Shown piece after piece: positions 1-365 of a stretch of 365 nucleotides of DNA. The translations under genes were made by a program, and so were the position numbers. The stretch is from Escherichia coli (lineage in GTDB: Bacteria; Pseudomonadota; Gammaproteobacteria; Enterobacterales; Enterobacteriaceae). The notes below the pieces were generated by a model. The model worked only from the letters and a program-made list of their open reading frames with translations, had not been told where the DNA came from and made no database searches. The DNA is taken from the NCBI RefSeq assembly GCF_003334335.1, contig NZ_QOWQ01000203.1. The stretch is one strand, 5' to 3'. Positions within the stretch are counted from its first letter, which is position 1. Each line of letters begins with the position of its first letter.

Positions 1-365
1 AGTCCCCACACCCCGTATGTCTCCACACCATCAGGCAGGGTACTGACCTGTATCCGGTCCGGCGCGGGGTGTGCGGTGATGTCCACACTCACCGGCTTAC
101 CGCTGCCGTTAATCAGGTTCACCGTCGATGCACCTGTCCCCGGAAGTGTCACTTCACGGTCCAGCGTCAGGGTGCGGGTGGCAGCATCGATGGACAGGAC
201 ACGTCCGCCGGTCAGGGTCCCGGCATAGTCGTTATCACAGATTTCAATGATGTCACCGGGTGTGTGCCGCAGCCCCTGAGACCCGAGTGTGAAATCCACC
301 GTCTGCGTTTCCAGCAGTTCGGTCTTTATCACCCACAGCCCGGCACGGTGGGCCTGACCGCGGCT
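1..365 (-). CDS. J: Internal fragment of a lambda-like phage tail tip / host specificity protein (gpJ-family central tail fibre protein); partial at both ends
   Basis: Seen in sequence: the reverse complement read from base 365 gives 121 sense codons with no stop (complement of 365..3), and bases 2..1 begin the next codon. The other two minus-strand frames hit TGA within about 36 and 111 nt. Leucine is encoded almost entirely by CTG, as in well-expressed enterobacterial or lambdoid genes. Recognition from memory, not a database search: motifs such as SRGQAHRAGLW-IKTELLETQTVDF, GDIIEICDNDYAG, TRTLTLDRE and NGSGKPVSV match what I recall of the central region of phage lambda gpJ (about 1130 aa), with many substitutions. 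No start or stop codon lies in the window, so true gene boundaries are outside it. Confidence 0.87.

Follow-up and report, generated by a model that had tools for sequence, protein, structure and literature searches.

A 365-nucleotide fragment of the lambda-type tail tip gene J in Escherichia coli and the previously recorded prophage cargo that follows the gene in matching genomes

The window, by which we mean the whole 365-nucleotide stretch of Escherichia coli DNA that was analyzed, is almost certainly a mid-gene piece of the gene for tail tip protein J of a lambda-like E. coli phage or prophage. It contains no separate system, and its J fragment belongs to an already known kind of gene, so that nothing in the window is new. 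The cargo found after J in genomes matching the window is of a known virulence and surface-protein type (Lom, an EibG-type adhesin, an ORF-156-like protein, and an Eaa SPATE) and not of a defense type. Taken by itself, the window is of little consequence, being an ordinary piece of a prophage gene that ranks among the most repeated in E. coli. The idea that cargo lies after J, once traced through genomes with the identical sequence, leads to an eib/eaa module already deposited as GenBank AF151091.

Minus-strand frame 1 was free of stop codons over all 365 bases in the ORF analysis of the window and encodes a 121-aa product. Codons 440-560 of J are complete in the window, positions 2-1 hold the first two bases of codon 561, and neither the start nor the stop codon of J falls within it (Table 1). 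The product aligned without gaps to residues 440-559 of the lambda Tip attachment protein J in a phmmer search (E 1.3e-49 with 8iyk_J), with 64% identity to lambda J. PDB entries 8iyk and 9e7m were both matched at an E value of about 1e-49, and PHROG tail and host-specificity families were matched with a best E value of 6.5e-68. Among the matches listed, an annotated gpJ CDS encloses the whole window in E. coli genomes as well as in annotated phages. The window holds no intergenic space, and the open frame and the homology to lambda J agree with the view of an earlier note on this DNA that one minus-strand structural gene accounts for all of it.

Table 1. Features of the window and of the loci discussed in the text. 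Positions refer to the sequence named in the first column.
Sequence	Feature	Position	Strand	Basis or remark
Window	Internal fragment of lambda-type tail tip attachment/host specificity gene J	1..365	-	Open frame; homology to lambda J and PHROGs
Window	Codons 440-482 of J, part of the HDIV core and C-terminal part of the Pfam Phage-tail_3 match	237..365	-	84% identical to lambda J
Window	Codons 483-560 of J, most of the beta-sandwich inserted in HDIV	3..236	-	53% identical to lambda J; the more variable half
Window	Codon-aligned antisense frame, stop-free, judged a non-gene	3..365	+	Open frame; unconserved
L001	Copy of the window	14001-14365		100% identical
L002	Copy of the window	14001-14365		100% identical
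L001	Gene J	11987-15682	-	1231 aa, intact
L002	Gene J	12152-15682	-	1176 aa, intact
L001	Part of J diverging from L002	11987-13233		Identity falls from about 100% to less than 60%
L002	Part of J diverging from L001	12152-13233		Identity falls from about 100% to less than 60%
L001	Mechanical ORF containing the antisense frame	14069-14944		291 aa, GTG start
L001	I-J spacer, between tail assembly gene I and J	15683-15935	-	253 nt, AT-rich
L001	ORF in the I-J spacer	15758-15883		41 aa
L001	Terminator-like hairpin and T-run in the I-J spacer	15756-15733		Strong; follows the 41-aa ORF, just before the J start
L001	Genes after J, in order: Lom, tail-fiber N-terminal protein, DUF4376 protein, YadA-like protein (508 aa), 157-aa hypothetical protein, S6 peptidase (1330 aa), truncated ompW
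L002	Genes after J, in order: tail fiber, DUF4376 protein, YadA-like protein (485 aa), 157-aa hypothetical protein, YkgJ, tRNA-Ser
L001	Gene for the 157-aa protein	6260-6733	-
L002	Gene for the 157-aa protein	7503-7976	-
L083	Gene for the 157-aa protein	4297-4770
L084	Gene for the 157-aa protein	4384-4857
L085	Gene for the 157-aa protein	4141-4614
L083 (EC2)	Annotated 'porin OmpC' gene	15252-16415		WP_000738902.1
L085 (STEC17-183)	Annotated 'porin OmpC' gene	15167-16330		WP_000738902.1
L076	Secreted alpha/beta-hydrolase-like protein, 494 aa	4780-6264 nt after the J stop	-	Beside an omptin protease gene

Coding constraint was assessed in 80 IMG/VR loci encoding relatives together with the two loci that carry the identical window (L001 and L002, described below), which yielded 31 distinct ungapped homologues of 93.7-100% DNA identity. 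Variable sites fell on sense codon positions 1, 2, and 3 in the ratio 7/5/46, a third-position bias that confirms the minus-strand frame. Among the changed codons, 260 were synonymous and 85 non-synonymous in this frame, and the sense frame is under purifying selection.

The earlier note had also stated that there was no additional supported ORF. Apart from four ORFs of 22-50 aa, the mechanical ORF list of the window contains two full-length open frames, the second of which (plus-strand frame 3) had been missed; it exists but is unsupported, and the statement therefore stands. It is very improbable that this frame represents a genuine antisense gene that overlaps J and lies wholly inside it, even though the frame runs for 121 codons without a stop and in L001 forms part of a 291-aa ORF with a GTG start. 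Read in the antisense frame, 312 of the 345 changed codons (90%) were non-synonymous and only 33 synonymous, and a stop codon interrupts this frame within the window in 12 of the 31 distinct homologues. Nor is the length of the frame beyond chance. The codons TTA, CTA, and TCA, the only sense codons that give antisense stops, make up 1.1% of J codons and are absent from the window; the probability of 121 codons without them is 0.25, and 22% of codon-order shuffles contain a run as long as the longest antisense stop-free run in J (317 codons). A PHROG search of the 291-aa ORF gave no match, and no promoter-like site was found in the window. The antisense ORF was thus rejected as a second gene on account of its non-conservation (stops and non-synonymous changes) and its chance-level length. 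Long codon-aligned antisense ORFs are well known to arise where a GC-rich gene lacks TTA, CTA, and TCA codons, and a fully open antisense frame in such a gene is to be expected and discounted.

It is still harder to believe that the J fragment conceals a functional non-coding element, be it a structured RNA, an internal promoter or terminator, or a recombination signal, and we regard this as extremely improbable. An Rfam search of the window returned nothing at E<=1, and 22 of 100 shuffled sequences folded as well as the window did (RNA fold z-score -0.65); a structured or known RNA was rejected on these results. Promoter-like or terminator-like sites were not found in the window, and no internal promoter or terminator was thereby detected. 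As for repeats and recombination signals, the only repeats are short and imperfect (10-17 nt, at chance level), and the window lacks a Chi site. The ORF, RNA, promoter, terminator, repeat, and fold tests all agree with the earlier view that no novel system is present in the window.

The position of the encoded stretch within J can be read from lambda. Residues 477-482 and 570-578 of lambda J form strands of hub domain HDIV, and residues 483-569 form an additional beta-sandwich between beta24 and beta25, inserted in HDIV (PMC10721106). This inserted beta-sandwich has been named the OB domain decorating HDIV; HDIV itself, with HDI of gpL, links the overlying gpM hexamer to the trimeric HDII-HDIII underneath (PMC11101478). 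The full-length J of L001, an exact-match genome, shows the full J domain architecture, with the Pfam order FNIII-A_GpJ (PF24801), Phage-tail_3 (PF13550, spanning residues 331-492), Ig_J (PF24421), Ig_J_second (PF24489), Phage_Tail_Tip (PF09327), and Ig_GpJ_C (PF12421). We infer the structural role of the encoded stretch from lambda cryo-EM, carried over at 64% identity. In the virion, three copies of J would build the lower tail-tip hub and then run on as the central fiber that binds the host receptor. The stretch encoded by the window would sit in HDIV and its inserted beta-sandwich or OB fold, where HDIV, with HDI of gpL, would act as the adapter between the trimeric tip and the overlying hexameric gpM ring. 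The receptor-binding C-terminus of J lies outside the window. The inserted beta-sandwich was also considered as a docking site for side tail fibers; this was ruled out, as the Stf collar in the Ur-lambda structure is located on gpV and gpM and not on gpJ (PMC12617516).

A 100% identical window was found in two complete genomes, STEC2018-607 (NZ_CP075697, locus L001) and NCTC9112 (NZ_LR134079, locus L002), and one IMG/VR contig (L007) contains the identical sequence too. In both genomes J is intact and closes a complete head-tail operon running from portal to J. According to the annotation of five genomes, J is the last gene of the tail operon, with the tape measure gene and the equivalents of M, L, K, and I before it and lom/stf after it. 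The annotation of L001 and L002 agrees with the earlier note that J is encoded on the minus strand and that downstream means toward position 1. The note erred in placing the region immediately after J just beyond position 1, since the window is mid-gene and the end of J lies about 2 kb further on (about 1.85-2.0 kb): J continues past position 1 for another 2014 nt in L001 and 1849 nt in L002. Among 68 related loci where the stop was reachable, nearly all have it about 1.3-2.0 kb past the window. A 365-base window midway in a 3.5-kb gene is uninformative on what follows the end of that gene.

The two exact-match loci are identical over 674 nt around the window. Their J genes diverge sharply from about 0.8-1.1 kb past it, identity falling from about 100% to less than 60% at roughly 1.1 kb, which indicates a mosaic junction inside J, with receptor-binding C-terminal thirds that differ. 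Because these C-terminal thirds are unlike each other, receptor specificity need not be LamB. The prophage sites also differ, L001 lying beside an ompW remnant and L002 beside tRNA-Ser/hya. One and the same window sequence is thus found at no fewer than two chromosomal sites that differ in what lies downstream, and the flanks are not deducible from it.

In megablast searches, 149 phage records, most of them from Stx-converting phages, matched the window at 90% identity or more. Of 5426 complete E. coli genomes, 1892 contain the segment, with a median of 2 places and a maximum of 11 in a single genome. Such numbers provide plentiful substrate for recombination between co-resident prophages. Matches in E. 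coli genomes were mostly 90-99% identical to the window. An abundance of this kind, together with the fact that many lambdoid prophages of E. coli are defective, would also fit a fragment derived from a decayed, cryptic prophage remnant in which J is a pseudogene, and in 3 of 68 related loci J ends prematurely, at a stop codon 235 nt beyond the window. We nevertheless consider a decayed source unlikely, given that there is no frame disruption within the window and that both exact-match genomes carry an intact J of 1176 or 1231 aa in a complete portal-to-J operon.

Turning to the region after J, windows 99.5-99.7% identical to ours were found in EC2 (L083), DETEC-S792 (L084), and STEC17-183 (L085). 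These three loci have the same gene series after J, Lom being variably present, and the series closes with a DinI-like gene and host genes; YadA-like proteins hold the same post-stf position in L001, L002, L083, L084, and L085. The earlier claim of a cargo hotspot downstream of J is upheld by the presence of cargo in all five genomes examined with windows of at least 99.5% identity. The downstream ORFs of matching genomes were not confined to canonical tail genes, as the note had allowed they might be; inserted cargo was present. The comparison with profile databases that it had proposed returned adhesin and SPATE cargo along with tail fibers and a blank PADLOC result for L001 and L002.

The 508-aa YadA-like protein of L001 matches EibD (2xqh, E 7.6e-94), has a YadA membrane anchor, and falls into a 90%-identity cluster with the UniProt 'Immunoglobulin binding protein' entries Q0EAF1 and D8WUI9. 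The S6 peptidase of L001 is a class-2-like SPATE whose best solved relatives are Pic and Hbp, and over its entire length it shares 93.9% identity with EaaC and 93.7% with EaaA; an Eaa SPATE is absent from L002, L083, L084, and L085. NCBIfam and PHROGs are consistent with the Lom, tail fiber, and autotransporter assignments. None of the six L001 and five L002 downstream proteins matched a PADLOC defense family, and on this basis a known or candidate defense system in the J-downstream flank of these two loci was rejected.

In every case the Eib-type adhesin gene is followed by that of the 157-aa protein, whose position and size match those of ORF-156A of P-EibA. It belongs to a 90%-identity cluster of 553 member sequences, and the exact protein occurs on at least 1000 contigs. 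No significant Pfam, NCBIfam, or PADLOC family was found for it, the only match being PHROG 6585, of unknown function. Judged by eye, its C-terminus looks like a helix-turn-helix.

Accessory genes are not restricted to the downstream side. The earlier note had placed any accessory cargo in the flanks, beyond position 1; this holds for the region downstream of J, but an ompC gene lies upstream in L083 and L085. This annotated 'porin OmpC' gene (WP_000738902.1) is set in the tail operon between an M-like 'phage tail protein' and minor tail protein L. The ompC insertion is missing from both exact-match genomes.

Also upstream of J, L001 has a 253-nt AT-rich spacer after tail assembly gene I, in which a 41-aa ORF is followed by a strong terminator-like hairpin and T-run (Table 1). 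The I-J gap of lambda is much shorter. Of 85 loci, 71 have a conserved counterpart of the spacer, but the many indels among them point to non-coding sequence; an Rfam search of the L001 spacer gave no match.

A wider survey places the downstream cargo in context. It took in 53 related loci whose sequence extends 1.5 kb or more past J. In 43 of them the next ORF is Lom-like, followed by various tail fiber or assembly genes and then by variable cargo, which includes NleH (NCBIfam E 5e-175), a Rha-family regulator, integrases, host genes, and methyltransferase-like and other ORFs. The occurrence of Eib/Eaa, NleH-type effectors, and methyltransferase-like and other ORFs at one position shows that the post-J/stf site is exchangeable, and it is a known exchangeable cargo site. 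There is a slight chance that the source locus of the window holds a different, undescribed set of cargo genes after J/stf. In L029 and L030 (3.6-7.7 kb after the J stop) and in L032, type III effector genes replace eib, the windows being 96.7-97.5% identical to ours; NleA-like and NleG-like sequences in related loci were recognized by eye only, and NleH by NCBIfam. A single hit to a PADLOC candidate family (PDLC01094, 'TAP-like protein', E 1e-56) came from L076, a locus less similar to the window, where it fell on a secreted alpha/beta-hydrolase-like protein of 494 aa.

Of the known systems, lambda gpJ (PDB 8IYK, 8XCG, 9E7M) is the counterpart of the gene itself. The alignment is collinear and ungapped with the same residue numbering (440-559), the Pfam domain series is that of the full-length L001 J, and the gene likewise closes the tail operon, coming after the equivalents of M, L, K, and I. 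It differs in sequence, with 64% identity in the window that divides into 84% for the HDIV core and 53% for the inserted beta-sandwich, and in length, lambda J having 1132 aa (chain length) vs. 1176 and 1231 aa in L002 and L001, respectively.

For the cargo, the closest counterparts are prophages P-EibA and P-EibC of E. coli ECOR-9 (AF151091, AF151674). In AF151091 (P-EibA) the order is J, lom, orf-401, orf-191A, eibA, orf-156A, orf-60A, eaaA. The order after J in L001 is the same except for orf-60A, which is unannotated there: L001 has lom, an orf-401-like stf, a DUF4376 gene at the position of orf-191A, eib, an ORF-156-like gene, and eaa. The Eaa proteins of P-EibA and P-EibC are 93.7-93.9% identical to the L001 S6 peptidase, and the presence of eaaA and eaaC on prophages linked to eib genes has been noted in SPATE reviews (PMC3153244, PMC6956023). 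P-EibA differs in that its eibA encodes about 392 aa, whereas L001 has an EibG-type allele of 508 aa. The Eib protein of L001 falls in the EibG cluster, which relates this locus to EibG-encoding STEC prophages. Cargo of the eib/eaa type was first described in 2000. Judged by sequence and gene order, the predicted cargo after J in the exact-match genomes is the P-Eib prophage cargo module, already on record, although lom and eaa are missing from L002, whose prophage adjoins tRNA-Ser and is not in ompW. The exchangeable effector loci downstream of the tail fiber genes in STEC lambdoid prophages occupy the same post-stf/tfa position with other cargo and have windows 94-98% identical to ours; they differ in that effectors were not seen where the window is at least 99.5% identical, those five genomes all having Eib-type adhesins.
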